64,000 nucleotides of DNA. Origin: an uncultured Bifidobacterium sp. (GTDB taxonomy: Bacteria; Bacteroidota; Bacteroidia; UKL13-3). Location of the stretch: contig CAZGVO010000012.1 of the NCBI GenBank assembly GCA_964529175.1, positions 12,757 to 76,756 on the forward strand, given 5' to 3'. Positions 2,165-45,993 of the stretch are shown here, in pieces. Positions within the stretch are counted from its first letter, which is position 1; every line of letters begins with the position of its first letter. The notes under the pieces are model-generated. The model searched no databases and had not been told where the DNA came from. It saw only the letters and a list, made by a program, of their open reading frames with translations. A program made the position numbers and the translations under genes.

Positions 2165-3238
2165 TTATGGTTTTTTAAGTTTGTTTATTTCCTTTTGAAT
2201 TTCATCTGCTTTCTTGTAATCTTCAGCATCCATAGCTTTTTTAAGGTCTTCTTCCAAATCTTTTATCGATTTTTTAGCTGGTTGTTTGCTGCTATTATCT
2301 GGTGTGGTTTTATCTTTTTTCTGGCCTGCTCTTTTATCTAATTCTTTTTGTAAAGCCTCCGCTTTAGTATAATCTTCAGCTTTTAAAGCAGCCTCTAACT
2401 GTTTCTTTAATTCTTCGGTACTTAGTTTGGTATATTTATTTTGCTCAGTTCTTTTGGTTATTTCGGCTTGTATATCGTTTGCTTCACTGTATTTTTCTGA
2501 TGCAGTAGCTTGGTCTAAAAGTTTTTTAAGTTCTTCATCATTGTATTTAGCGTAGTCGGTTTTTACTATTGGAGGGGCTTCTTTTGTCTGGTAATTGCCC
2601 TCGGCAGGCGGTAAGTTGTAATTTGGCACATTTTTGTAAGAAGTTTCAGCATTCTGTTTTTGTTCTCCAAAATGATAGCTCAAGCTTAAGGAAGGTAACA
2701 TCCATAAGGGGTTGTAATCTCCGTCAATTACTTCTAATAAAAAAAATACATCTAAGTGTTGAACCAATCCTATGTCAAATCCATTTTTAAATTCGTATCC
2801 CCCACCAAGTGCTAAGCCAGGCAGAATAGGTGTTTCTTCAAATTCATCCTTGTTGGATCCTGTTGGTAAGTTTACATACGGCCCAAATTTTAAATACCCA
2901 TTTTCAGGTTTATATCTAAACAACCCAGAAAGTCCCAAAATACTAAGGTTTTCGTCCCCTTCATCATAACTCATTTTTCCGAAATGAATACCTGGTCCAA
3001 AACTTAGGCTATTCGATAAGTTTAATCTATAACTCGCTCCTATCCAAGAGCGTGCATCACCGATATTAATTTGAAATGGTTTTTGACCTTTATTTAAACT
3101 TATAGGTTTATTTGTACTTGTAGTATTATTTTTTGGCTCTTGCTTGGTCTCAGTTTTTTTATAAAATAAATCTGAATTTTGAGCTAATAAACTATTAGAC
3201 GCTAGAAGGATTGATAAGATGGTAGTTTTTAGTTTCAT
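2165..3238 (-). CDS. outer-membrane beta-barrel protein with three C-terminal UVR-like repeats
   Basis: Signal peptide, alternating amphipathic beta-strand region (…GLALGGGYEF…LSLSYHF). Three copies of a ~30-aa unit (S/T)xEELKKxLxxAxxAEDYxKAxxIQKEIxK. Confidence 0.5.
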   Translation of the reverse strand: MKLKTTILSILLASNSLLAQNSDLFYKKTETKQEPKNNTTSTNKPISLNKGQKPFQINIGDARSWIGASYRLNLSNSLSFGPGIHFGKMSYDEGDENLSILGLSGLFRYKPENGYLKFGPYVNLPTGSNKDEFEETPILPGLALGGGYEFKNGFDIGLVQHLDVFFLLEVIDGDYNPLWMLPSLSLSYHFGEQKQNAETSYKNVPNYNLPPAEGNYQTKEAPPIVKTDYAKYNDEELKKLLDQATASEKYSEANDIQAEITKRTEQNKYTKLSTEELKKQLEAALKAEDYTKAEALQKELDKRAGQKKDKTTPDNSSKQPAKKSIKDLEEDLKKAMDAEDYKKADEIQKEINKLKKP

Positions 3239-3245
3239 TTTTATT

Positions 3246-4664
3246 TTAGTTACACTTGTTTAAATATTTTTGAATTTGATCGTAGTCATCTACGCTGGTT
3301 TCTGTACGCATGTAAATGGTTAAATGCATTTTTCCATCCCTACATTTTTTATTGTTTACCAGTAATTTGCCCAATTCTCGGTGTAAATAAGGGTAAGTGT
3401 TATTGTATTTTAAACCATCGTTTAGCAAAACTTCTGCTAGTTCGGTTTTGTTTAAATTGGCCTGATAAGTGCCCATAACATAATATGGCAAATACATAGC
3501 TGGCCAAAGTTGATTAACTTGTTTGGCTAGGTCGGCAGTGGTTTTACTAACTCCGTAATCAAAAAATGATTTATAAAATTGAGCAAATACATACACATCG
3601 TTGCTCGAAAATTGAGCAGAACTTATGCCTTGCATACCACCTAAAACAGTTTGCAATAATTTTTCAACTTGAGGAATTTTAGGGGTATAAATTAACGCAT
3701 TAATACAAGCCTCAATAGCAGCATGGTTGTTAAGTGCCGATGCTTGAGTTTTTGCTATTCCATACCAAACCCTGGCATCTTCAGGATATTTATTTGATAA
3801 AAAAGTAAGTAAATCCAATGCTTTAGTGTCGTCATTATTTATCATTAAATAATTGGCGTTTAAAAGCATAATATCTAAATCAGCACTGTTAAGTTTTTTT
3901 GCAATTTTTATGGCAGCCTCAGCTTCCTCATTATTTTCCAATTGTAACAAAAACTGTGCTTTGTAATAATAGGCCAAATAAAGTTTTGGCGATGTTTCTA
4001 TTATTTCATCGCAGTAGTTTATTCCATTTTGATATTCAGCTTTTTTTCTTGCTCTAGCAGGGTCAAGGCCAAATATTGGAAAGGTTTTAGCCAATGCTTT
4101 TACCTTATCAAGCTTATTATAAACCTGAATTGGAATATCCGATAAATCTGCCTTTGGATTATTGGAGGCTTGTAAAAGGCTATTGCCAATATTGAACGAT
4201 GCTGTAATTTTTTTAGCTAATTCGCTTTGTAGGTTAAAAAGGTTATTTAAACTTCCATTTACTGAATTACTGCTAATTACTTGTCCTGTAGTTACACTTA
4301 CTGTTCTTGTACTTATTTTTACAGTTTCGTTAAGTGCTGTAATTGAGCCAAATACAAAATACTGGACACCCAAAAGTCTTCCAGTTTCTATGGCTGTTTT
4401 TTCGTCAACCAAACCTGAGTTTTGAAGTTTTACCTCCTCAATAATTTTGTTTAAATATTCACGTTCAACTACTCTAACAGTGTGGTCGTTAGTAAGTATT
4501 TCAAAAATAGCTTCAGTACAACTAGCCCCTAAAAAGTCTTTTTCGCTTCCACCGCCAAGTGTTTTAAAATTGGCAATTGCCACAGTTATTGGTGCTGATG
4601 CAAAAGCATTTACAGAAAAAAGTAGTAGGCTTGAAATATAAATTTTTAGTAAAGTGTATTTCAT
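3246..4664 (-). CDS. CsgG-like secretion-channel domain protein fused to TPR repeats
   Basis: N-terminus ITVAIANFKTLGG..LGASCTEAIFEIL..VVEREYLNKIIEEVKLQNSGLV..LGVQYFVFGSI matches the CsgG/HfaB-family pattern. C-terminal half is helical repeat-rich (TPR-like). First gene of a four-gene minus-strand operon. Confidence 0.5.
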   Translation of the reverse strand: MKYTLLKIYISSLLLFSVNAFASAPITVAIANFKTLGGGSEKDFLGASCTEAIFEILTNDHTVRVVEREYLNKIIEEVKLQNSGLVDEKTAIETGRLLGVQYFVFGSITALNETVKISTRTVSVTTGQVISSNSVNGSLNNLFNLQSELAKKITASFNIGNSLLQASNNPKADLSDIPIQVYNKLDKVKALAKTFPIFGLDPARARKKAEYQNGINYCDEIIETSPKLYLAYYYKAQFLLQLENNEEAEAAIKIAKKLNSADLDIMLLNANYLMINNDDTKALDLLTFLSNKYPEDARVWYGIAKTQASALNNHAAIEACINALIYTPKIPQVEKLLQTVLGGMQGISSAQFSSNDVYVFAQFYKSFFDYGVSKTTADLAKQVNQLWPAMYLPYYVMGTYQANLNKTELAEVLLNDGLKYNNTYPYLHRELGKLLVNNKKCRDGKMHLTIYMRTETSVDDYDQIQKYLNKCN

Positions 4665-4806
4665 GGGTAAATATTTTAATATTTACCGCAAGTAAGCACA
4701 ATTTAAAAGTATATCCTATACCTATAAGTAGGTATTTTGCATTAATTTTTTGTTAAATATCTGATTGGTAGGTTATTATGTTTAGCTTGTTTTTCTAGTA
4801 GCTTGG

Positions 4807-5583
4807 TTACCAAGTTAGTTTCTCTTTATTTAAAAATGCGTTGATACCTTTTTTGCAATCGTTGGTTTGGCGTGCATAAGCATTCATTTCTGCAGCGTAG
4901 TTTAGTGCATCAATTAAGCTTCTATTTTGTACTTCGTCAATCATTTGTTTTGTTAATGCCAAACTTTGTCCTGACGCGCCTTTGCAAAGTTTTTGTGCAA
5001 AATTGAACACATGTTCTTCTATTTCTTCAAAGTTTACCACTTCGTTTATCAACTGAAAGTTTTTTGCTTGTTCTGCAGTTAAAATTTCGGCTGTCAGTAA
5101 AATGCGTTTAGCTGTTTGTTCGCCTACTTTGCGCAATAAAAATACCATTACTATAGCGGGCACAAAACCAATTTTTACTTCGGTGTAAGCAAATTTACTA
5201 TCAGTTGTAGCAAAACAAAAATCGCAAATGGTAGCTAAACCGCAGCCGCCAGCCAAAGCAGCACCTTCTACTTGCGCTATCACTACTTTTCTCGATTGGT
5301 AAATCATGGCAAAAAGTTCCATTAAGTTTTTACTATCGGCTAAGTTTTCATCGTAAGTATTGTTTTGCATGGTTTGCAAACTACTTAAGTCAGCTCCGCT
5401 ACAAAAAGCCTCTCCATTTCCTTTAAATACTATAACCTTGCAGTTTTCATCGCTTTCAGCTTGCACAAATACACGTTTTATTTGTTGCACAAAATCAAAA
5501 CTTAATGCATTGCGTTTTTCTGGTCGGTTTAAGGTTATATAACCTACACGTTCTTTTACATGGTATAATACTAAATCGTTCAT
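4807..5583 (-). CDS. enoyl-CoA hydratase/isomerase (crotonase family)
   Basis: Crotonase fold motifs NRPEKRNAL, FKGNGEAFCSGADL, AQVEGAALAGGCGLA. Confidence 0.8.
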   Translation of the reverse strand: MNDLVLYHVKERVGYITLNRPEKRNALSFDFVQQIKRVFVQAESDENCKVIVFKGNGEAFCSGADLSSLQTMQNNTYDENLADSKNLMELFAMIYQSRKVVIAQVEGAALAGGCGLATICDFCFATTDSKFAYTEVKIGFVPAIVMVFLLRKVGEQTAKRILLTAEILTAEQAKNFQLINEVVNFEEIEEHVFNFAQKLCKGASGQSLALTKQMIDEVQNRSLIDALNYAAEMNAYARQTNDCKKGINAFLNKEKLTW

Positions 5584-7745: not shown

Positions 7746-8237
7746 ATGTTATATAATTGCATAAACAAAGAAACAAATATGGCTTACAATTACTTATTAC
7801 TTATTCACAGTTGGTTGCGTTGGGCTTTTTTAATAGCCGCTCTATATGCAATAGTTCGCTCATTAAATGGAAAATTGGGAAACAAACCATTTACCAAAGA
7901 TGATATTACTGCTGCAAAAATTTTAATAGCACTTAGTCATACTATGTTGCTTTTGGGCTTAATACTTTGGTTTGTGAGTCCTAATGTGCAAAATGCGTTG
8001 GCTCAAGGTGCTGGTGTGTTTATGAAAGATAAATATATGCGATTAATAGTATTAGAACATCCTTTAACCAATATTATAGCTGTGGCTTTAATTCAAATTG
8101 GTAGGATAAAAAGCAAGAAAGCTTACGAAGATGCAGTTAAACACAACCGTAGTTTAATTTATTATGGTTTGGGTTTATTGTTAATTTTATCGCGTATTCC
8201 GTGGGGCACATCGCCACTGTTTAGAGGAATGGAATAA
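7746..8237 (+). CDS. hypothetical small membrane protein
   Basis: Three to four hydrophobic helices; likely start at MAYNYLL (~7779). Followed by a clean terminator. Confidence 0.4.
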   Translation: MLYNCINKETNMAYNYLLLIHSWLRWAFLIAALYAIVRSLNGKLGNKPFTKDDITAAKILIALSHTMLLLGLILWFVSPNVQNALAQGAGVFMKDKYMRLIVLEHPLTNIIAVALIQIGRIKSKKAYEDAVKHNRSLIYYGLGLLLILSRIPWGTSPLFRGME

Positions 8238-20559: not shown

Positions 20560-20830
20560 TTTAGGCCTTTTATGAGGGTGAGATGTGAGATGGGGATTGT
20601 GAGATGGCGATTGTGAAAAGTGAGATGAGAAATGAGCACTGAGATGGGAAATGAGGATTGTGAGATGAGATTTGAGAGAAGAGAAATGAGCACTGAGTTG
20701 GGAGAGAAAAAATTTGCAATTTGCAATAGGCAATTTGCAAGGCGTATTGCTTTCAATTCAAAACCAACAATTTAACAATACAACAATTTAGCAATTTAAT
20801 CATCTAACAGTTAAACAATCAAAAAATCAA
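20560..20830. repeat. low-complexity degenerate repeat tract
   Basis: gagatg/tgagatg iterations, two copies of ~20-nt (g)agatgagaaatgagcactgag, then tgcaat x3 and caacaattta/caa(t/c)aa runs. Confidence 0.6.
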
Positions 20831-20856
20831 CAAGTCAAAAATCTCCAAATAAAAAG

Positions 20857-22149
20857 CTACACAAACATCTCTTCTTGTTCTTTATCTAAATCTTCTTTGT
20901 CTTGGTCTAACTGGCGTTTTACTAAAAGTTGCAAAGCTGGGCCAGCCATAACCGAAGTTACTACTGCCATAATAACTATGGCCACAAACAGTTTTTGATT
21001 GATTAATCCTGCTTGCAAAGCCAATAATGCTAAAATAATTTCCATTGCACCACGGGCATTCATTCCAAAACCTACTGCTAAACTTTCTTTTTTGGTTAAG
21101 CCACCCCATAATGCACCTAATCCTGCGCCTAATAGTTTACAAATTACTGCAATAATTAATACCAAAGCTGTCACCTGAAAATCGAAATTGGCAATAAAAT
21201 TTACCTTAAAACCAATGGAAACAAAAAACAAAGGTGCAAAAATATTGGTCACAAACTGATTCACTATTTCGCGCGTTTTCTCGGTTAAATGCACGCTATC
21301 GCCAAAGGCAATACCTACTATAAAAGCACCAAAAATGGCATGAATGCCAATAAACTCGGTAAAAGCAGCACCTAAAAATGCCAATCCTAATGAAATACTT
21401 AAAAATCCTCCTGGCCAGCTAAAGTTTTTTTGTGCCCAAGGCAATGATTTATTAATAATTATACGGCCAACTGTCAGCATGGCAACGGAATACAATATGG
21501 TTAAACCCAAAGTATAAATAAAACCATGAGCACCCGTGTCGGGTTTCATCATGCCTAATATTACCGAAAATAACAACCAACCAATAATATCGTCAAACAT
21601 GGCTGCGGCTATAATTATCATACCAACTTTGGTTCTAAATAAACCCAAATCCATTAAAGTGCGCGCTATAATTGGTAACGCTGAAACAGCCATAGCTGTT
21701 CCAAAAAACAAACTGAATAAAATTAATTGGGTATGCGAATTGTAGTTTTCGCCAAATAATGGAAATTGATAATATGCTACTAAAAAACCTAAACCTAAAG
21801 GAATGATTAATCCTAAAAAGCTTGTTTTTAAAGCTGTTTTGCCTTGCTGGCGAATGATAGATAAATCAACTTCCATACCTGCCACAAACAATAACATGAT
21901 AACTGATATTGAGGTAATGCCATTAAATGCAATAGCCGAATTACTTTCTTTATTTAAAACCAAATTACTTACCTGAGGAAAATACTGACCTAATAAACTT
22001 GGTCCAAGACAAATTCCTGCCATCAATTCTCCAACTACCAACGGCATTTTAAATTTCCTGAAAAATTCACCCACAAGCCTTGCCACAATAAGCAGTATGC
22101 CTAAGCTTAATATTAAACTTATTGTTTCATGGTGGTTTAAGGTTTTCAT
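20857..22149 (-). CDS. cation:proton antiporter (CPA2/Kef-type Na+/H+ exchanger)
   Basis: 12-13 TM helices, typical CPA pattern. Confidence 0.8.
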   Translation of the reverse strand: MKTLNHHETISLILSLGILLIVARLVGEFFRKFKMPLVVGELMAGICLGPSLLGQYFPQVSNLVLNKESNSAIAFNGITSISVIMLLFVAGMEVDLSIIRQQGKTALKTSFLGLIIPLGLGFLVAYYQFPLFGENYNSHTQLILFSLFFGTAMAVSALPIIARTLMDLGLFRTKVGMIIIAAAMFDDIIGWLLFSVILGMMKPDTGAHGFIYTLGLTILYSVAMLTVGRIIINKSLPWAQKNFSWPGGFLSISLGLAFLGAAFTEFIGIHAIFGAFIVGIAFGDSVHLTEKTREIVNQFVTNIFAPLFFVSIGFKVNFIANFDFQVTALVLIIAVICKLLGAGLGALWGGLTKKESLAVGFGMNARGAMEIILALLALQAGLINQKLFVAIVIMAVVTSVMAGPALQLLVKRQLDQDKEDLDKEQEEMFV

Positions 22150-22344
22150 TTGTTTGAGTTTAAAGTTTTGAAGTGTTTATGTGTTAAAGTGAGGGATTGC
22201 TGTATTGTTGTCCCGATAAATCGGGAGTTGTATTGTTATTTTCCTTTATTGTTTTATTGCTTCTTGTCAATTGCCAATTGCTTATTGTCTATAAACTATG
22301 GTCTATTAACTATCATCTATGATCTATCAACTAACAACTGTCAA
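22150..22344. repeat. AT-rich low-complexity repeat tract with embedded perfect palindrome
   Basis: ttgtattgtt, caattgccaattgc, tctat(t/c)aacta iterations. Palindrome tcccgat-aa-atcggga at ~22211-22226, about 60 bp upstream of the antiporter start. Confidence 0.55.
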
Positions 22345-23205
22345 CTAAACCCCATCTTCGTTTACCAATAATAAATTACAAGGCAAATCGGCTAAAGCAA
22401 ATTCAATATCAGTTGGAAAAACACGGTCAATCAAATTTAGTTTTCTGTCGGGTGAGTTTAGTACCAATAAATCCGCTTCATTTTCGCGGGCATATTTGGT
22501 AATTACATAACCTGGCTTGCCTTCTATACGTTCCACATTTACTTTTAAACCGCCACAATCGTTACAACTTAAAATATATTCTAGCTTTTTATTTTCCTCG
22601 CTAATTAATTGTTCTTTGTGATGAGCCATTTCGTTTTCTTTAAACTCATCGCTACGTATTAATGCGGCTTTGCTTAAATCGGTTTCTTGTATTACGTCTA
22701 CATATTTTACATTAAAAGCTTTGGCTATTTCAATGGCTTTTGCAATGGTGTTAACTGTTTTTGGATTATCAGAACCTTCAACTACTATGCGTTTTAAAGG
22801 GTTCGATTCTATCATAGGTTCAGTAAGCATTAACATGCTGCATTTTACCCTACGACTTAATTTACGAGCCACACTGCCCATAAAATATTTTATTAAACTT
22901 TCTTTTTCTAAAGCACCTGCTACCAGTAGATCAAACTGTTCATCTTCACATATTTGTAAAATAGTTTCAACAGGTTCGCCTTCGCGCCAAATTAATTGTG
23001 AGTTGCTTAAATTATATTTATCAAAAAGGTCTTTTAAAGTCTTTTCATCTTCGGTACTTTGTTTGCCAACATGTATAAAAAACAAGTTGGATACAAATCC
23101 TTTTTGCATTTTAGAAGCTTCAGCTATAATAGCCTCAAGCCTTGGCGAAAAAGCAATGGCTATTCCAATTTTTTTAAAAATTAATTCTTTTTTCTCTGCA
23201 CTCAT
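22345..23205 (-). CDS. tandem-domain universal stress protein (UspA family)
   Basis: Two USP-like halves; C-terminal …ADLLVLNSPDRK…LPCNLLLV is typical. Immediately upstream of the antiporter in the same orientation. Confidence 0.6.
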   Translation of the reverse strand: MSAEKKELIFKKIGIAIAFSPRLEAIIAEASKMQKGFVSNLFFIHVGKQSTEDEKTLKDLFDKYNLSNSQLIWREGEPVETILQICEDEQFDLLVAGALEKESLIKYFMGSVARKLSRRVKCSMLMLTEPMIESNPLKRIVVEGSDNPKTVNTIAKAIEIAKAFNVKYVDVIQETDLSKAALIRSDEFKENEMAHHKEQLISEENKKLEYILSCNDCGGLKVNVERIEGKPGYVITKYARENEADLLVLNSPDRKLNLIDRVFPTDIEFALADLPCNLLLVNEDGV

Positions 23206-24733: not shown

Positions 24734-25432
24734 CTATTCCTTAATAGGTTTACTTGTTTTTTTAGCAGGTTTTGGGTTAATAAATTGTGCATCGTAAAAA
24801 CTTTTTACTCTAGGTTTATCATTAACATGTAGCTTAATTAAATCTAATAGAACCAAGTACATGCCAGTAGCCAGTTCTATTCTTATGGTATTTCCATCAA
24901 ACGAGCCTTCTTTTACTTCTCCTTTTTTAGTTAATTGAGCGTTTCTAACGCTTATATATTGGTTTAATATTTCAATTGATTTGTCTTTAAATTCTTGTTT
25001 TAAATCTATCTCCAATTGGCAAGCATCATTAAGCCGTTGCATAATGGTTTCAGCTTCGGTTTTTTTCATTTTATTGTATTCCTCTTTTCCGTTAGGAAAC
25101 AAAGCGTTAAAAGCCACCGGTTTTTTTCGTTTCCAGCTATATACTTCATCGTATAAATTGGTTACAAAGCCAATAAATTCATTTAATACACTGTTTACCG
25201 TTATGGTTTTTCCTTTTTTAGTGGTTACGGTAGTTTCTTGGTTGCTTAGCCATTTTCTGTATTTATTATACAATGGCTCCACTAGGGCAATCATGGCTGT
25301 ATATTCGCCTGTATTGTTTTCAGTATTTTGATATGCTTTTAAATAATTAAGATGACCTTGTGCTAATAAGCCAAAATGCTCATCACTTAGTCTTGAATTT
25401 TCAAACGGATTTTCTAAAATATTGTTTATCAT
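24734..25432 (-). CDS. hypothetical protein, left edge of the accessory island
   Basis: 232 aa, no recognisable motif; Lys-rich C-terminus (PKPAKKTSKPIKE). Confidence 0.4.
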   Translation of the reverse strand: MINNILENPFENSRLSDEHFGLLAQGHLNYLKAYQNTENNTGEYTAMIALVEPLYNKYRKWLSNQETTVTTKKGKTITVNSVLNEFIGFVTNLYDEVYSWKRKKPVAFNALFPNGKEEYNKMKKTEAETIMQRLNDACQLEIDLKQEFKDKSIEILNQYISVRNAQLTKKGEVKEGSFDGNTIRIELATGMYLVLLDLIKLHVNDKPRVKSFYDAQFINPKPAKKTSKPIKE

Positions 25433-25629
25433 ATTATATCCTATATTTTAAATGGTTATTTAGTGGCTCAAAATTACAAGTGCTAAAATTTGCATTGGTT
25501 TTTAACCAATTAGGTTTACTTAAAAACCATATTTTTTTATTTATAATAGCTACTTTTTAATGCCATAAACCAAATAACTTTAATTATCATTATTTTATAA
25601 TAGCTTGTTTAATAAAACGATAACATTAA

Positions 25630-25895
25630 TATTTTGGTATGATGATGTAATAAATAAACCAAAATCAAAAATACCATTACATGATGATGTAATGACAAAA
25701 CCGAAGCCGAAAATACCGTTACATGATTATGTAATGGCAAAACCGAAGCCGAAAATACTGTTACATGATGATGTAATGACAAAACCGAAGCCGAAAATAC
25801 CATTACATGATAATGTAATGACTAAACCGAAGCCGAAAATATTGTTACATGATGATGTAATGACAAAACCGAAATTGAAAAGGGAGACTGTCCAA
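25630..25895. repeat. 42-bp tandem direct repeat array (~6.3 units), each unit with a 16-bp near-palindrome TTACAT-N4-ATGTAA
   Basis: Units about 90% identical, e.g. gatgatgtaatgacaaaaccgaagccgaaaataccgttacat; palindrome arms conserved while the 4-nt centre varies (gatg/gatt/gata). Confidence 0.8.
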
Positions 25896-26110
25896 AAAAG
25901 TGGGTAAAGGGTACTGTTTAACTAAGTGTATAAAGGAATAATTAGTTTAAAATGAATATGTTAAATTGGCAGGAGCCTTGATTGCAACTTTTCTTACCAT
26001 AAGACTAACTTTTTAAATTACAGTAAATAGAACTATAAGAATTTATTTTAGCGCGACACCCTTTGGCGTTTCTACCAAGTAATTTTGCAGTAACTAGAAA
26101 CAAAAATACT

Positions 26111-26527
26111 ATGGAAGAACAGTTTTATTACTCAGATATTACTAATAATGAACTCCTATATTTACTGAAACAACCAAATTTTGCTGCTTCGTTAGCATAT
26201 TTAGTTGATTTTAAAAATCATTCTGATTTGACTGTTACTCCACACGATTATTCAATTGAAATATCGAATAAGGATATATGCATTGCTGTTATTTTATTAG
26301 CGGGATTTGAAACAAACGAATATTTAACTTTAAAAAATAATGTAAATTTTAATTTGATAACTTTAAGTAAAATAATACCTGGAATGTGCGAATTTGAAAA
26401 TATGCCACTAAAATACATAGATAATTTAGCCTGGTTTTTTTCTGCAATAAATAGGTCGAAAAATGAAGAAGTGAAGAAAATTAGCCGTATTAAGAATTTA
26501 AATATGGATTCAGTATCAATCTCATAA
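26111..26527 (+). CDS. hypothetical protein, tandem paralog A
   Basis: Start moved to MEEQFYY. About 60% identical to the next gene over its full length (…FAASLAYLVDFKNHSDLTVTP.DYSIEISN…). Confidence 0.5.
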   Translation: MEEQFYYSDITNNELLYLLKQPNFAASLAYLVDFKNHSDLTVTPHDYSIEISNKDICIAVILLAGFETNEYLTLKNNVNFNLITLSKIIPGMCEFENMPLKYIDNLAWFFSAINRSKNEEVKKISRIKNLNMDSVSIS

Positions 26528-26548
26528 TAATAACTAAACAATACAAAC

Positions 26549-26947
26549 ATGGAAGACCAATTTTATTACTCAAACATTTTTAATAATTCATTATTACACT
26601 TGCTTAGGCAGCCAGATTTTGCTGCTTCGTTAGCATATTTAGTCGATTTTAAAAATCATTCAGATTTGACTGTTACTCCATATGATTATTCAATAGAAAT
26701 ATCGAATAATGAAATAACTATAGCCATTGTTCTTTTTTCTGGGTTTGAATTAAATGAGTATTTGGCACTAAAGAATAAAAGGAACTTTCATATCATTTGT
26801 ATTAATCCAATATTTTTACAAATGTGTGAATTTGAGGAGATGCAATTAAAATATATTGATAAGTTATCCTGGTTTTTTTCTGTAATAAACAGATCGGAAA
26901 ACGAATTGGTGAAAGAAATTAATTGGATAAAAAATTTAACAGTTTAG
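26549..26947 (+). CDS. hypothetical protein, tandem paralog B
   Basis: MEDQFYYSNIFNN…; paralog of 26111-26527. Confidence 0.5.
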   Translation: MEDQFYYSNIFNNSLLHLLRQPDFAASLAYLVDFKNHSDLTVTPYDYSIEISNNEITIAIVLFSGFELNEYLALKNKRNFHIICINPIFLQMCEFEEMQLKYIDKLSWFFSVINRSENELVKEINWIKNLTV

Positions 26948-27050
26948 TAAAAAAATAATGTTTGGTAATACCATAACTAATTCCGTTAATTACAATTAAA
27001 ATAGGGTAGCAGAAAACTATTTAAGTAAGCAAAATATAAAAATATAAAAT

Positions 27051-27350
27051 ATGATTTCAGACGTAAGAGAAAAAGGAAGCCTCATTGAAGTTTATGATGC
27101 AAATAGTAAAAGAATTTCTTACATGAGTGTAGGAAGTAAAGAGCTTGTTGGTATTGCAAGCAATTTCTTTGTTGTTATCAATGGTTTACTAGTTGAAGTG
27201 TATGATGAAAAATGTAAACGTGTTTCATATATGAGTAAAGGTAGCAAAATTGTAAAAGGTGCAGCGGGCAATACTTTTACAGTAAAAAATGGTAGCCTTA
27301 TTGAAACCTATGATGAGAATTGTAAAAGAATAAGTTACAAAAACGCTTAA
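27051..27350 (+). CDS. small protein made of three ~32-aa repeats
   Basis: LIEVYDANSKRISYMSVGSK… / LVEVYDEKCKRVSYMSKGSK… / LIETYDENCKRISYKNA; 3-bp gap to the next gene. Confidence 0.45.
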   Translation: MISDVREKGSLIEVYDANSKRISYMSVGSKELVGIASNFFVVINGLLVEVYDEKCKRVSYMSKGSKIVKGAAGNTFTVKNGSLIETYDENCKRISYKNA

Positions 27351-27352
27351 AT

Positions 27353-28618
27353 ATGGAAATAGCAGAAGAAACAATCAAAAATTTACTTAGTCAGGTTTCT
27401 ACCATTGTAAGTAAATACGATGAAATAGCAGTAGCAAATGGAGAAAACTTCAATGTATTTCAAATACTTAACTTATCAAGTGCTGAAGTTAGATTACATT
27501 CAAAACTGTTAGCTGAATTACTAAATCCTAAAGGAAGCCATAATTTAGGAGATGTATTTCTTAAGTTGTTTATTCAAAGATTAAACAATAGTCCATTTAT
27601 AGGTGAGCCTCTGAAATTATCAGAGCTTGAAAATTCACTGATAGAAGTTGAAAAATATACTGGTAATATTGATAAGCAAAATGATACTGGAGGTAATATT
27701 GATATTTTTATTCATTTGCCAGGTCAAAGCGATTTAGTGATTGAAAATAAAATTTTTGCAGGCGACCAAGAAAGTCAATTAAGGCGTTATCATAATTTCA
27801 ATAAAACAAAGAAACCAGTACTTGTTTATTTGACATTGGATGGCAAGGAAGCAGATGAATTCACTACAAAAAATTCACAGTATAATGAAAATAAAATTGA
27901 ACCGGTCTTATTTTCTTATCAAAGTGATGTAAAAGAATGGTTAGAAGATTGTAGAAAAGAAGCGACCAATTTACCTGTGGTTAGAGAAACAATAACGCAA
28001 TACATTAATTTAATTAAAAACCTAACAGGACAAAGTATGAATAATAATATGAAAAATGACGTTGTAAAAGCTATATCTGAAAGTGGTGCTAAAGTTAAAG
28101 GAGCATTTGAAATTGGGACCGCCTTATCTGATGTTAAAAAACTGCTATTGAAAAAATTTGCAGAAGAAGTTATACTAAAAGTAAAGAAAGCGAAACCAAG
28201 TGTTAGTGCTGATTTATCAAATAATTTCGGTGAAAAATGGAACGGTATTTCATTTAGTTTACAGACAATTAGCAGTACTAATGTTTATTTTTCATTTTTA
28301 AAAGATTATAAGGATGTTTATCTCGAAATAGGTAATAAACAGAATTACTGGCAAGATAAAATAAAGAAGGTCGAATTAAAAAACATAGAATATTATAGGA
28401 ATGCTTTAGTTAATATTTCAAAAGGTTGGGGGATAATTGAAAATACTGTAAACGCTTGGAATGGTGATTGGGTATGCAGATATAGGAAAATGGATGTTTG
28501 GATAAATGATGGTAGTCTTTGGTACGATATTGCCGAAAACAAATTTGATGATAAGGCTGAAAAAGTAGCGCAAGATATTTTAGTACTTCTTGAGTCTACT
28601 GAGAAGAAACAATTCTAA
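27353..28618 (+). CDS. PD-(D/E)XK nuclease-superfamily protein (PDDEXK_4-like), paralog 1
   Basis: N-terminal GENFNVFQILNLSSAEVRLHSKLLAELLNPKGSHNLGDVFLKLF; catalytic-type motif GNIDIFIH…DLVIENKIFAGDQESQLRRYH; conserved LPVVRETITQYINLIKN. Confidence 0.6.
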   Translation: MEIAEETIKNLLSQVSTIVSKYDEIAVANGENFNVFQILNLSSAEVRLHSKLLAELLNPKGSHNLGDVFLKLFIQRLNNSPFIGEPLKLSELENSLIEVEKYTGNIDKQNDTGGNIDIFIHLPGQSDLVIENKIFAGDQESQLRRYHNFNKTKKPVLVYLTLDGKEADEFTTKNSQYNENKIEPVLFSYQSDVKEWLEDCRKEATNLPVVRETITQYINLIKNLTGQSMNNNMKNDVVKAISESGAKVKGAFEIGTALSDVKKLLLKKFAEEVILKVKKAKPSVSADLSNNFGEKWNGISFSLQTISSTNVYFSFLKDYKDVYLEIGNKQNYWQDKIKKVELKNIEYYRNALVNISKGWGIIENTVNAWNGDWVCRYRKMDVWINDGSLWYDIAENKFDDKAEKVAQDILVLLESTEKKQF

Positions 28619-28635
28619 TTATTGATTGAATAAAT

Positions 28636-29808
28636 ATGGAGTTAACACAATCAATACAGTACCTTCTTAGTTCTGTTTCCGAAATAAATAAAAAGTATGA
28701 AGAAATAGCAAGTATTACAGGAGAAAACTTTAACATTTTTAAAGTATTAAACTTACAGTCAGATGAGGTGCGTTTGCATTCAAGACTTTTAGGAGAATTA
28801 TTAAACCCCCATGGTTCTCATGGTAAAAATGAATTATTTCTGGAATTGTTTTTATCAACTTTAAATTTGAATAGTGAATATACTCAAGAGGAGATAAAAA
28901 ATGCAACTGTAATTGTAGAAGAGAACATAGGTAATATCTCAGATGATTACTCAAAAGGAGGTAGAATTGATTTAGTTATTAAATTTCTGGGGAATAAAGA
29001 AATAGTTATTGAAAATAAAATAGGTGCTGGTGACCAATTTAATCAATTAGGTCGATATCATGAGCAATATCACAATGCTCATATTTTATATTTAACACCT
29101 TTAGAAAAGAAACCTTCTAAAGAAAGCCTTGGAGAAAAATTAAAACTTGAGCAAGTAAAATGCATTACTTATAGAAATGAAATAAAGAAATGGATAGAAC
29201 TATGCCATGAAAAAACATCCAATTTTCCGATGTTAAGAGAAACTATCACACAATATATTTTTTTAATTAAACATATAACAAATCAAACAATGAATGAAGA
29301 AATGGAAAAGGAAATAGTAAAAAAAATAATTAGTAGCCAAGAAATGATGAATGCAGCTGAAATTATTTATAATAATTTTGGTGGTGCTAAAATTGAAATA
29401 ATGAAAAGTTTTGGTGAAAAGATTCGTGATAAATTTCCTAATCTTATTTGTGATCCATTTCCAGGCGATGATAATGATGTTGAATTTCATTTTTATAATC
29501 GCAAATGGAGTAATGTAAAGATTCGTATTCGATTAATAACAAATGAATATGCAAGAATAAGTATTCGTTATGAAAATGATTTTAAAGAGTTAGAAAGCTT
29601 TGCAGCATTATGTGAAAAGTTAAATAGCAAGTTTAAAAATACTAATTATAAAGAAGACCCTAACAATTTATTTGTTTATAATATTGCTAAATGGGACTAT
29701 AATATAATTTGGAATTCTGTTAATTCTGATAATGACGAATTTATTAAAAAAATATTTGAGAATATTGAGCTATATCAAAATGCTCTTGCAAACATTAACG
29801 GTTTATAA
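28636..29808 (+). CDS. PD-(D/E)XK nuclease-superfamily protein (PDDEXK_4-like), paralog 2
   Basis: Same motif set: GENFNIFKVLNLQSDEVRLHSRLLGELLNPHGSHG, GRIDLVIKF…EIVIENKIGAGDQFNQLGRYHE, FPMLRETITQYIFLIKH. About 35-40% identical to paralog 1. Confidence 0.6.
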   Translation: MELTQSIQYLLSSVSEINKKYEEIASITGENFNIFKVLNLQSDEVRLHSRLLGELLNPHGSHGKNELFLELFLSTLNLNSEYTQEEIKNATVIVEENIGNISDDYSKGGRIDLVIKFLGNKEIVIENKIGAGDQFNQLGRYHEQYHNAHILYLTPLEKKPSKESLGEKLKLEQVKCITYRNEIKKWIELCHEKTSNFPMLRETITQYIFLIKHITNQTMNEEMEKEIVKKIISSQEMMNAAEIIYNNFGGAKIEIMKSFGEKIRDKFPNLICDPFPGDDNDVEFHFYNRKWSNVKIRIRLITNEYARISIRYENDFKELESFAALCEKLNSKFKNTNYKEDPNNLFVYNIAKWDYNIIWNSVNSDNDEFIKKIFENIELYQNALANINGL

Positions 29809-29816
29809 TTTATTAA

Positions 29817-30734
29817 ATGTCTAAACGCGGCTACATATCACGCTATTTGCTCATACTTAAAAAGTTGAAAGTAAAACCTTTTGCTACTTATGAGGAGTTG
29901 CAGACTTATATTGATCATCAGTTTGAGTATTTGCAAATGCAAGATGATGGATTGCAAATTGGTTTTTCTAAACGAACGCTTCAACGTGACATCAAAGAAA
30001 TAAGTAATATTTTCGGAATTGATATAGAATATTCAAAGCAAGAAAAAGGCTATTTCATTAGCCAAAGTGAAAATGAAAACATGAATTTTCAGCGTATGAT
30101 GGAGGCTTTTGAAATATTTAATTCTTTAAATATGGCTCACGATTTAAAGCCGTTTATTCATTTAGAAAAGCGTAAACCACAAGGAACTGAAAATTTGTAT
30201 GGTTTGCTACATGCCATTAAAAACAAGTTTCAAATAAAGTTTACTTATCAAAAATTTTGGGAGGAAGAACCAAGTAAACGCCTTGCAGAACCTTATGCTT
30301 TAAAAGAGTTTAAAAGTCGCTGGTATATTATGGCTAAGGATAAAAAAGATAATCATATCAAAAGTTTTGCGCTTGACCGCTTAACGAATCTTGAAATTAC
30401 TACCCTACATTTTCAATACAATAGTAATTACAATATAGAACAAAACTACCGCTATTGTTTTGGCATTATCAGCCCAAATGAGGAGGAACCTCAAGATATT
30501 ATTTTATCGTTTGAACCATTTCAAGGAAAATATATCAAAACATTGCCACTGCACGAAACACAAACAGTTTTGGTAGATAATGACGATGAGTTGAAAATTA
30601 AGCTAAAACTTTATCTCACTCATGATTTATTAATGGAATTACTTTCGTTTGGTGATAATGTAAAAGTGATTGAACCCAAAACGTTAGCAGATGAAATTAA
30701 GCAAGCACATGAAATGGCCTTTAAGCAATATTGA
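29817..30734 (+). CDS. wHTH-WYL-WCX transcriptional regulator (BrxR/CapW-like)
   Basis: N-terminal HTH (ISRYLLILKKL…TYEEL). WYL domain FKSRWYIMAKDKKDNHIKSFALDRLTNLEIT; C-terminal extension consistent with WCX. 8-bp gap from the nuclease gene. Confidence 0.75.
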   Translation: MSKRGYISRYLLILKKLKVKPFATYEELQTYIDHQFEYLQMQDDGLQIGFSKRTLQRDIKEISNIFGIDIEYSKQEKGYFISQSENENMNFQRMMEAFEIFNSLNMAHDLKPFIHLEKRKPQGTENLYGLLHAIKNKFQIKFTYQKFWEEEPSKRLAEPYALKEFKSRWYIMAKDKKDNHIKSFALDRLTNLEITTLHFQYNSNYNIEQNYRYCFGIISPNEEEPQDIILSFEPFQGKYIKTLPLHETQTVLVDNDDELKIKLKLYLTHDLLMELLSFGDNVKVIEPKTLADEIKQAHEMAFKQY

Positions 30735-44514: not shown

Positions 44515-45993
44515 TTGATAATTTATAGTATTTATTTAATGGAAAAACTAATTAACAAGTATATTTTAGCAATCATAGCAGTTTTGCAATTGGTATTGTT
44601 TTTTGTAATTAAAAACGATCCTTTTCATGGCGATGCTGTTACATCTACAGCTAGAGCAGCACTTAATATTTACAACCATAATTTGCAAACTATTTGGTAT
44701 CCAGCTAATTTCGATCCAGGTCATCCTACTTTATTTCCGTATTTATTAGCTTGTTGTTGGATGGTTTTTGGAAAGTCGCTGGTGGTAAGTCATCTTATTA
44801 TAATGCTTACTTCTTTTTTTATACTTTTTATTACTAGAAAAATTGCCTTGCATTATTGCCATGAAACCAAAGCCAATTTAGCCACTTTGTTAGCCGGTTG
44901 TTATTCTATTTTTATAGCTCAGCAAGCGTTATTGCTTAATACACCATTGTTCTACTTGTTTGTATTATTGGCATTTTATTATTTAATAAAACAACAAAAA
45001 CTAGGTTTTGTAATTAGCACTTTATTAATGGAATTAACTCATTTGCAAGCTAATTTTTTCTTATTGGCATTTGGCATAATTTATTGTTACCAAGTATTTA
45101 AAAACAAAGAAACCATTGTACAGTTTTTTAAAAATGGACTAATGCTTTTTTTGCCCGCTGTAACGGTTTTAGGTATTTGGTTATACGTTCACCAACAGCA
45201 TTTTGGTTGGGCTTTTTTATCGCCTAATTATACCGAACATAACGATATAAAAGGAATTAAGCAGTTTGTTCAAAGTGTGTTTTTAATTATTTGGCGTTTG
45301 GTTGATAATGGCATGTTAACCGTATATGGTTTGCTTATTTATTTATTTTTCAAACAAAAGTTAAATAAGGAACTGTTTATTTTTAGTTCAATTATATTAA
45401 TAGTTAATAGCCTTTGTATGGCAATATTTTTATATAATACCATTGGCCATAGGTATTTTATGATTAGCCAATTTTTGTTTATTGTTTTATTAATAGAAGC
45501 AAGTAATAAAAAACAACTTAAATGGATTGCAAGTTTGGTTTTGGTAAGCTTAGCAATTGGAAATGTTATGTATTACCCGGGTAAGGTAATAGCAGATACC
45601 AATTTACAATACCGCAATTTTTTTAAATTAGAGCAACAAGTAAAAAGTAATTTCGATTCTATTCGATTCTATTCTTACGCACCCATTAGTTCAAGTGCCG
45701 ATATTCGTTATTTAGATTTGGACAAAGGTTTAAAAATTAGTTCATTAAATGACTTGAATTTAGATACCATTCCTGCTTTGTTACAATCAAATGTAAATGC
45801 TGAATTTACAAAACCTCAGCGTGATTTTTTATATAATAATTGGTACGGAAACAGTTATGAAAATGGGGCTGTCTATGTAAATGTATTTTTAAATCCAAAG
45901 TATTATTCTAAACCAAGTTGGTTTAAATTAAGACAACCAAGTTATTTTGAGCAAAAATTGCAAGAGTTAAAGTATAAAATAAGAAAAGAATAG
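44515..45993 (+). CDS. ArnT/PMT-like membrane glycosyltransferase-family protein (divergent paralog)
   Basis: Similar topology; GDAVTSTARA…PANFDPGHPTLFPYLL. Divergently transcribed ~23 bp from 43163-44491. Confidence 0.45.
   Translation: MIIYSIYLMEKLINKYILAIIAVLQLVLFFVIKNDPFHGDAVTSTARAALNIYNHNLQTIWYPANFDPGHPTLFPYLLACCWMVFGKSLVVSHLIIMLTSFFILFITRKIALHYCHETKANLATLLAGCYSIFIAQQALLLNTPLFYLFVLLAFYYLIKQQKLGFVISTLLMELTHLQANFFLLAFGIIYCYQVFKNKETIVQFFKNGLMLFLPAVTVLGIWLYVHQQHFGWAFLSPNYTEHNDIKGIKQFVQSVFLIIWRLVDNGMLTVYGLLIYLFFKQKLNKELFIFSSIILIVNSLCMAIFLYNTIGHRYFMISQFLFIVLLIEASNKKQLKWIASLVLVSLAIGNVMYYPGKVIADTNLQYRNFFKLEQQVKSNFDSIRFYSYAPISSSADIRYLDLDKGLKISSLNDLNLDTIPALLQSNVNAEFTKPQRDFLYNNWYGNSYENGAVYVNVFLNPKYYSKPSWFKLRQPSYFEQKLQELKYKIRKE

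Follow-up and report, generated by a model that had tools for sequence, protein, structure and literature searches.

A phased array of 42-bp palindromic units upstream of an unannotated Bacteroidota gene family, a candidate protein-binding control element

We examined a 64,000-nucleotide stretch of contig CAZGVO010000012.1, from an uncultured member of the Bacteroidota (hereafter the window, whose numbering is used throughout), and within it a tandem array of 42-bp units, each carrying an inverted repeat (dyad) of the form TTACAT-N4-ATGTAA. Our preferred reading, which we hold with moderate confidence, is that the array is a conserved cis-acting element in the 5' control region of the gene family represented by the neighbouring gene at 24734-25432, and that it consists of phased putative protein-binding dyads. 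A sequence-only reading of the window had placed the array between this minus-strand gene and a plus-strand pair of paralogs (26111-26947), which is indeed where it lies, and had preferred phased sites for a dimeric protein over a coding repeat. That preference is strengthened by sequence comparison, in which 12 loci share the exact 42-bp period, the dyad arms appear as the most conserved part of the unit and the reading frame of the window is stopped elsewhere.

Tandem Repeats Finder (TRF) reported the window array at 25639-25873 with a period of 42, 5.6 copies, 88% matches, no indels and a score of 358, and a repeat search returned start-to-start spacings of 42, 42, 42, 42 and 42. Overall, 25609-25888 comprises five complete units with a degenerate unit at either end, so the earlier description of six units at about 90% identity was a fair one. 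The layout is as follows, with no strand assigned to these features:

25609-25650: gene-proximal degenerate unit, a copy of 72% identity in which the right arm ATGTAA is kept and the left arm has decayed
25634-25650: decayed dyad of this proximal unit, TTGGTAT-GATG-ATGTAA
25651-25860: five complete 42-bp units, from TRF and register alignment, each running from linker through AAATACC and R to the 16-bp dyad TTACAT-N4-ATGTAA
25677-25692: dyad 1, TTACATGATGATGTAA, perfect pattern match
25719-25734: dyad 2, TTACATGATTATGTAA, perfect pattern match
25761-25776: dyad 3, TTACATGATGATGTAA, perfect pattern match
25803-25818: dyad 4, TTACATGATAATGTAA, perfect pattern match
25845-25860: dyad 5, TTACATGATGATGTAA, perfect pattern match
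25861 to about 25888: distal partial unit, tgacaaaaccgaaattgaaaag, beyond which similarity ends

The arms are invariant among the five dyads and only the spacers drift (GATG, GATT, GATG, GATA and GATG in order), as the sequence-only reading had noticed; in several units the arms lengthen to 8 bp (CATTACAT/ATGTAATG). Within the 64 kb the pattern TTACATNNNNATGTAA has its five perfect matches here (25677, 25719, 25761, 25803 and 25845) and no other, and the single site outside the array, at 45781, carries one mismatch. With one mismatch allowed the chance expectation is 0.84 matches, and six were reached in 0/100 shuffles. This confinement of the dyad to the array suggests a dedicated rather than a global site. 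The half-site centres of the 16-bp dyad are 10 bp apart. At 10.5 bp per turn of B-DNA, 42 bp amount to four turns, which sets all dyads on one face of the helix.

The sequence-only reading had proposed looking for the dyad and for 42-bp copies in relatives. We scanned one genome per species for pairs of TTACAT-N4-ATGTAA dyads spaced by 32-62 bp; of the 34 loci obtained, two had a 42-bp period. One (L030) is in a Bacteroidia metagenome-assembled genome (MAG), where the flanking gene encodes a 68%-identical homologue of the 232-amino-acid (aa) product of 24734-25432; the other (L019) is in a Bacteroidetes MAG, where the flanking 329-aa protein matches the broad family profile with E=1e-6. We retrieved the contigs of ten more family members and examined their upstream DNA. 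A tandem array with the 42-bp period lies upstream of the family gene in 12/12 independent loci with readable upstream DNA (the window, L043, L035, L036, L044/45, L030, L037-40, L042, L047, L046, L019 and L053); two further loci were uninformative, as their contigs run out 113 and 358 bp ahead of the gene. In every locus with enough upstream DNA, a lag of exactly 42 gave the only autocorrelation peak, and TRF independently gave a period of 42 in L047. All comparison loci are metagenome assemblies, where tandem repeats can collapse.

The family proteins at these loci range from 86% identity with that of the window down to a profile-only match. Throughout this range the array begins 57-270 bp upstream of the start codon of the family gene, with the polarity of the unit relative to the gene constant and all loci set in one register. 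The genes past the array, by contrast, vary by locus and are sometimes co-directional instead of divergent, and no conserved flank was found distal to the array. The array therefore belongs with the family gene and not with the plus-strand genes of the window, and from these sequences gene and array together appear to be a conserved module of uncultured Bacteroidota.

Diversity along the unit, computed over the nine loci that share a TTRCAT-type dyad, was distributed as follows:

Twelve arm positions: within-array pairwise diversity 0.08, between-locus consensus divergence 0.12
Central four bases (N4): within-array 0.23, between-locus 0.42
14-bp linker: within-array 0.25, between-locus 0.65
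AAATRCC stretch before the dyad: within-array 0.21, between-locus 0.52

The arms are thus 3-5 times less variable than the remainder of the unit, being more conserved than spacer and flanks both within arrays and between loci, and the AAATRCC stretch ahead of the dyad is only partly conserved. Their sole variable positions form a symmetric pair (29/40), which distinguishes TTACAT/ATGTAA from TTGCAT/ATGCAA and co-varies (A-T 27, G-C 6, A.C 6, G.T 2; Fisher p=0.004, the units being non-independent). This pattern shows selection acting on the palindrome arms. More distant members keep the period of 42 with different dyads, for instance TCCAAGCTTGGA and TTGCGACTACTTGCAA in L047, CCCACGTGGG in L046 and TTCCAATTTTGGAA in L053. 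Several arrays contain palindromes that are perfect and loop-less, such as TTACATCATGATGTAA in L042 and CGTTGCATTGCAATGCAACG in L037, a form typical of sites bound as double-stranded DNA. We considered, and rejected, a second palindrome in every unit at 21 bp from the first (shuffle P=1.0 in the window). It is marginal in L036, L030 and L047 (shuffle P=0.03-0.05), and a second dyad TTYC...GRAA, visible by eye in L035, L047, L046, L053 and L019, is a feature of some relatives only.

The position of the array can also be related to a likely promoter of the family gene:

24734-25432, minus strand: 232-aa open reading frame (ORF), the conserved partner of the array, from an unannotated Bacteroidota family
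25469-25476, minus strand: -7 box TAATTTTG, matching TAnnTTTG, 44 nt before the ATG of the 232-aa gene

TAnnTTTG is the -7 promoter motif of Bacteroidota. The window, L043 and L030 have an exact copy of it 24-44 nt ahead of the ATG, and L036 and L047 have further exact matches just upstream of the family gene. Since the motif lies between array and gene, the array is upstream of the likely promoter. The proximal dyad is 89-90 bp from the -7 box in L043 and L030 and 89 bp in L036 (hand count), as against 208 bp in the window, so that no helical phase relative to the promoter is common to all loci. We rejected the possibility that the units are themselves promoters (TTTG ... TATTTTCG on the gene strand), as this arrangement occurs only in the window and L043 and not in the other loci. 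A sigma-70 scan gave nothing above chance, and no sigma-54 type -24/-12 motif was seen by eye.

We postulate the following mechanism. Each 42-bp unit would present one 16-bp dyad, TTRCAT-N4-ATGYAA, whose 10-bp half-site spacing offers the geometry for a dimer contacting two successive major grooves. A dimeric DNA-binding protein would occupy these dyads cooperatively, and the bound dyads would build a higher-order nucleoprotein complex, probably bent or wrapped, that sets the activity of a promoter some 150-450 bp away, an output that we infer to be transcriptional control. In the window the complex could possibly act on the divergent defence-gene operon as well. Gain or loss of units by slippage would change the number of docking sites, and unit number may in this way tune the output. 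As to the binder, we tentatively put forward the family protein itself, the only conserved neighbour of the array, a proposal that we rate below even and about level with that of an unlinked host regulator. The basic character of the family protein (isoelectric point, pI, 9.0), together with the confinement of the dyad to the array, argues for a dedicated factor. Two candidates had been named by the sequence-only reading; one, the product of 24734-25432, does belong to the family that neighbours the array throughout, and the other, the WYL protein, is not the conserved partner, its WYL/WCX gene being present only in the window among the loci compared.

In its architecture the array resembles sopC of F, whose 12 x 43-bp repeats owe all their binding specificity to the 16-bp inverted repeat within each and whose spacing of 'almost exactly four helical turns' sets the sites on one face; each bound dimer bends the DNA by about 50 degrees, and relatives of sopC have 3 to 17 repeats with degenerate terminal ones (PMC3177203). 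Both elements are thus tandem direct repeats of about four turns (43 bp in sopC, 42 bp here) on one helix face, with a 16-bp inverted repeat as the only conserved recognition element per repeat, a variable repeat number (3-17 in sopC, 3-8 here) and degenerate first and last repeats. They differ in that the array loci have no SopA/ParA or SopB/ParB gene, that the recognition sequences are unrelated, and that the array is chromosomal rather than on a plasmid or phage, lying upstream of, and polar to, one unrelated gene family. By analogy, the array seems most like a phased operator or centromere-type binding array, although it fails the tests for a partition centromere and for an iteron origin.

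Other known systems show fainter likenesses. Operators of the BlaI/MecI/CopY type, such as the cop box TACANNTGTA and its 16-base refinement RNYKACANNTGTMRNY (PMC7253601), also have inverted TACA and TGTA in their half-sites. However, the cop box has an N2 spacing where the array has TACA-N6-TGTA, and these operators occur one or two per promoter, in contrast to the 5-8 phased copies in arrays. No regulator of the BlaI/MecI/CopY type was found among the window ORFs scanned, nor a BlaI/CopY-like gene among the small ones, and we treat this resemblance as a lead only. The iterons of theta plasmids are likewise helically phased tandem direct repeats beside the gene of a potential binder. Unlike the units of the array, they measure 17-22 bp and contain no dyad, and they adjoin a winged-helix Rep initiator, an AT-rich unwinding region and DnaA boxes, none of which is present at the array. 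Repetitive extragenic palindromes (REP) and bacterial interspersed mosaic elements (BIME) share with the array imperfect palindromes in tandem intergenic clusters, but REP sequences are dispersed in many copies per genome, whereas the dyad of the array is confined to it within 64 kb and tied to one gene family.

Several results weigh against a protein-binding control element. No cognate dyad-binding protein turned up; the family proteins, as modelled with AlphaFold2 (AF2) and compared with PDB and BFVD, appear to have no recognisable DNA-binding domain; and the gene tables of related loci contain no regulator gene conserved beside the arrays. Strict dyad symmetry is not always kept, since most units of L037-40 have no left arm (CTGCAACGCAATGCAA). 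In L053 the second dyad varies between the units of one array while staying self-complementary, a pattern no less compatible with hairpin or cruciform pairing than with base-specific readout. The comparative data, finally, come entirely from the collapse-prone assemblies mentioned above.

Two alternatives concern what the repeated sequence itself would make. The first is that the array encodes a protein of 14-residue repeats (KPKPKIPLHDDVMT) from the following ORF:

25605-25907, plus strand: 100-aa ORF, the repeat read in frame from a TTG start, judged not a gene

This frame is open through the whole array in the window, L045, L030, L037 and L019, and automatic gene callers put ORFs over some arrays. 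However, the dyad closes two of three frames per strand, so that one open frame per strand is expected, and the strand on which an ORF is called changes between loci. Apart from LH-DV, which the palindrome encodes, the peptides of different loci are unrelated; the 100-aa product starts at TTG and has no significant family match (PaaA2 scores 22.7 bits, below the cut-off of 27), and no entry of the protein collection has its exact sequence. The rejection of this reading rests on stops in the orthologous arrays: the window frame (TTA CAT GAT GAT GTA ATG) is stopped seven times in L042, three times in L053, twice in L046 and once each in L035, L043, L036 and L047. We therefore give the coding repeat almost no credence, in agreement with the sequence-only reading, which had dismissed the ORF as the repeat in frame with an implausible start. 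A structured nucleic acid, in which the units form cruciforms, single-stranded DNA hairpins or RNA hairpins that serve a structure-specific protein or make a repeated RNA scaffold, fares somewhat better, and we consider it unlikely. It would account for the folding z-scores against shuffles (-5.0 on the plus and -3.6 on the minus strand), for the dyad-preserving compensatory change from TTACAT/ATGTAA to TTGCAT/ATGCAA in L030 and L037, and for three different self-complementary second dyads within the L053 array. Yet low folding energy is expected of any palindrome array, and several of the dyads are perfect and loop-less. Among mismatches in the 8-bp stem neither strand is favoured (G.T 24, A.C 26, other 36); an RNA made from one strand should favour G.U, and on this balance we reject RNA hairpins. 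Rfam 15 gave 0 matches at gathering score, with only chance microRNA-like matches at E 0.02-0.1 (in a search to E<=1 the only ones were at 20-23 bits, for microRNA models whose gathering scores are 84-110), and a scan for tRNA and tmRNA found none. The array also lies upstream of the promoter-like box of the family gene, and a period of four helical turns has no rationale for RNA.

The remaining alternatives turn on how the array is maintained. It could be a contingency or rheostat locus, in which slippage changes the unit number and heritably and reversibly shifts expression of the family gene, an idea that can coexist with binding and that we regard, as a full explanation, as quite improbable. 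Four metagenome contigs encoding an identical protein (P0009) have 7, 5, 7 and 3 units and differ by exactly 84 or 168 bp, and units are homogenised within arrays but diverged between loci, which indicates ongoing turnover. These copy numbers are insecure, as short-read assemblies can collapse tandem repeats, and variation alone leaves the conserved dyad and the exact 42-bp period unexplained. Five independent Logan assemblies (L048-L052), from the sample series SRR13076572-95 and with an identical 138-aa paralog, all start at the equivalent of window position 25844, inside the last unit; contigs that break inside the array call for caution with unit counts from assemblies. Very unlikely, in our view, is a site that maintains an integrated plasmid or island as a replicon, be it a sopC-like partition centromere or a site of iteron type that serves as origin or for incompatibility. 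Its anatomy is near-identical to that of sopC (42 vs 43 bp, a 16-bp inverted repeat, variable number, degenerate ends), and the window array sits inside a low-GC block (24.5-33.5 kb) with defence genes. Against this, Pfam scans and gene tables placed a ParA/SopA ATPase, ParB/SopB or Rep initiator next to the array in 0/12 loci; 72,556 plasmids, 50,697 phages and IMG/VR yielded no relative of either the family protein or the array DNA; a pattern scan of viral sequences returned only unrelated arrays with 21-bp or other periods; the DnaA box TTATNCACA occurs only at 7801 and 31103 in the window, below chance expectation and not near the array; and the flanking genes are ordinary chromosomal ones that vary between loci. 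Least probable of these three is a functionless neutral minisatellite that is beside the gene by chance or shared descent, for which we see scarcely any room. Apparent copy-number variation and a linker that drifts freely between loci would suit it, but the array retains its period, orientation and position even next to family members that only a profile search can recognise, the arms vary far less than other unit positions (by the 3-5 times given above), and a neutral repeat would not outlast such divergence. The sequence-only reading had held that free variation in copy number would speak for neutrality. The number does apparently vary (7, 5 and 3 units beside an identical protein), but this does not make the array neutral, and free variation is too strict a refutation because sopC arrays also vary, from 3 to 17 repeats (PMC3177203). 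An array of clustered regularly interspaced short palindromic repeats (CRISPR) was rejected because what separates the palindromes is repeated as well, with 88% likeness among whole 42-bp units.

The 232-aa protein that accompanies the array is all-helical. It has no match in Pfam, PHROG, NCBIfam or PADLOC, and an exact look-up of its sequence gave no entry. Its 14 close relatives are all unannotated and without a Pfam domain, while a profile search with the family reached 626 representative clusters in two size classes of about 230 and about 320 aa. The AF2 model of the 232-aa protein is a helical bundle with a predicted local distance difference test (pLDDT) score of 81, with no match in PDB or BFVD, and none of the family models has a Rep-like match there. 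The longer relatives, of about 320 aa, gain a C-terminal jelly-roll domain. For example, a 325-aa relative (AF2, pLDDT 95) has two helices of about 55 residues followed by a C-terminal jelly-roll, whose best structural matches are PirA, Ena endospore-appendage subunits and a phage cement protein. Genes for type IX secretion system (T9SS)-type cargo (Por_Secre_tail) or for very large secreted proteins are often near the family gene (L037, L038, L041, L042, L046, L047, L053 and L019), and secreted-type genes are directly downstream of it in L047, L053 and L019; this neighbourhood may be a coincidence in Bacteroidota.

A bolder proposal, which we consider doubtful, is that gene and array make up a widespread Bacteroidota module not recognised before, in which the helical/jelly-roll protein assembles on its own four-turn-phased palindrome array to give a chromosomal, sopC-like nucleoprotein scaffold with no partition ATPase, or else that the array is a recombination or insertion landmark for defence cargo. 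The landmark version is prompted by the first genes beyond the array, which differ between syntenic loci, and by a breakpoint in the pair L037 and L039. These two share an identical family protein, a 7-unit array and 67 bases beyond it, after which they diverge completely, and the divergence point is a strain-level breakpoint next to the array. Should our preferred reading of the array hold, it would be a second, independent use of the sopC design, in which 16-bp dyads at every four helical turns align many protein dimers along one DNA face, on the chromosomes of uncultured Bacteroidota. The array would then give a first functional handle on an annotation-free family of hundreds of clusters, as a defined element for tests of binding and regulation. 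The 42-bp upstream periodicity would serve as a simple sequence rule for spotting the module, and it raises the question of why a helical/jelly-roll protein needs so elaborate a control region.

Around the window array, the following features lie on the side away from the 232-aa gene:

26080-26087, plus strand: -7-like box TAATTTTG, 24 nt before the ATG (26111) of the first divergent gene
26111-26527 and 26549-26947, plus strand: duplicated gene pair of 138 and 132 aa (TRF period 438, 1.9 copies, 75%)

The box at 26080-26087 is context and outside the conserved module. The 21 nt at 26092-26112, up to and overlapping the ATG of the first paralog (AACTAGAAACAAAAATACTAT), have 81% identity to the AACC..AAAATACCAT part of the unit, a likeness that may be due to chance in AT-rich DNA. 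Neither paralog has a match in Pfam, PHROG, NCBIfam or PADLOC. Downstream of the pair are a 99-aa ORF, two PDDEXK_4 genes (the PADLOC candidate PDC-S26) and a WYL-WCX regulator gene. The 99-aa ORF (27051-27350) consists of three internal repeats of about 30 residues (…GSLIEVYD.N.KRISYMS.GSK…), with sub-threshold matches only, to an SH3-like LytB domain and PbeB. The GC fraction is 0.25-0.33 across 24.5-33.5 kb, compared to 0.34-0.40 in the flanks, and the array falls within this defence-gene block. More short tandem repeats, with periods of 7-54 bp, occur in intergenic DNA at 20578-20910 and 22135-22347, around a Na+/H+ exchanger gene.

The closest relatives carry different defence-type genes beside the module. 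In the window the first genes past the array are the unannotated paralog pair, followed by PDC-S26 with its two PDDEXK_4 genes and WYL-WCX (26111-30734); L045 has GmrSD (457-2526) and L043 an Eco57I-like methylase-restriction enzyme (1-2433) in first place, and L035 has a P4 cII-like gene with a RES-domain gene (2586-5397). The window, L043 and L035 have an M28 peptidase neighbour in common, so the region is a variable hotspot in a syntenic position. The array is at the edge of the variable defence-gene region in these relatives and may bear on the regulation or assembly of such regions.

Other tandem arrays of the dyad TTACAT-N4-ATGTAA, repeating every 19-23, 32 or 40 bp, occur in MAGs of Bacteroidales, Selenomonadaceae and Clostridiales (L003, L007, L011, L013, L015, L016, L021-L023, L025, L033 and L034; L014, L017, L028, L029, L018 and L006). 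A homologue of the 232-aa family is present at none of these loci. In Bacteroidaceae MAGs, 22-bp arrays are found on several contigs per genome, in both orientations and beside TTTAC-N8-GTAAA motifs, and have the appearance of termini of a repeated element. L029 has a 6 x 32-bp array located 40 bp ahead of a gene for an AAA_14 ATPase with a MarR-like domain.

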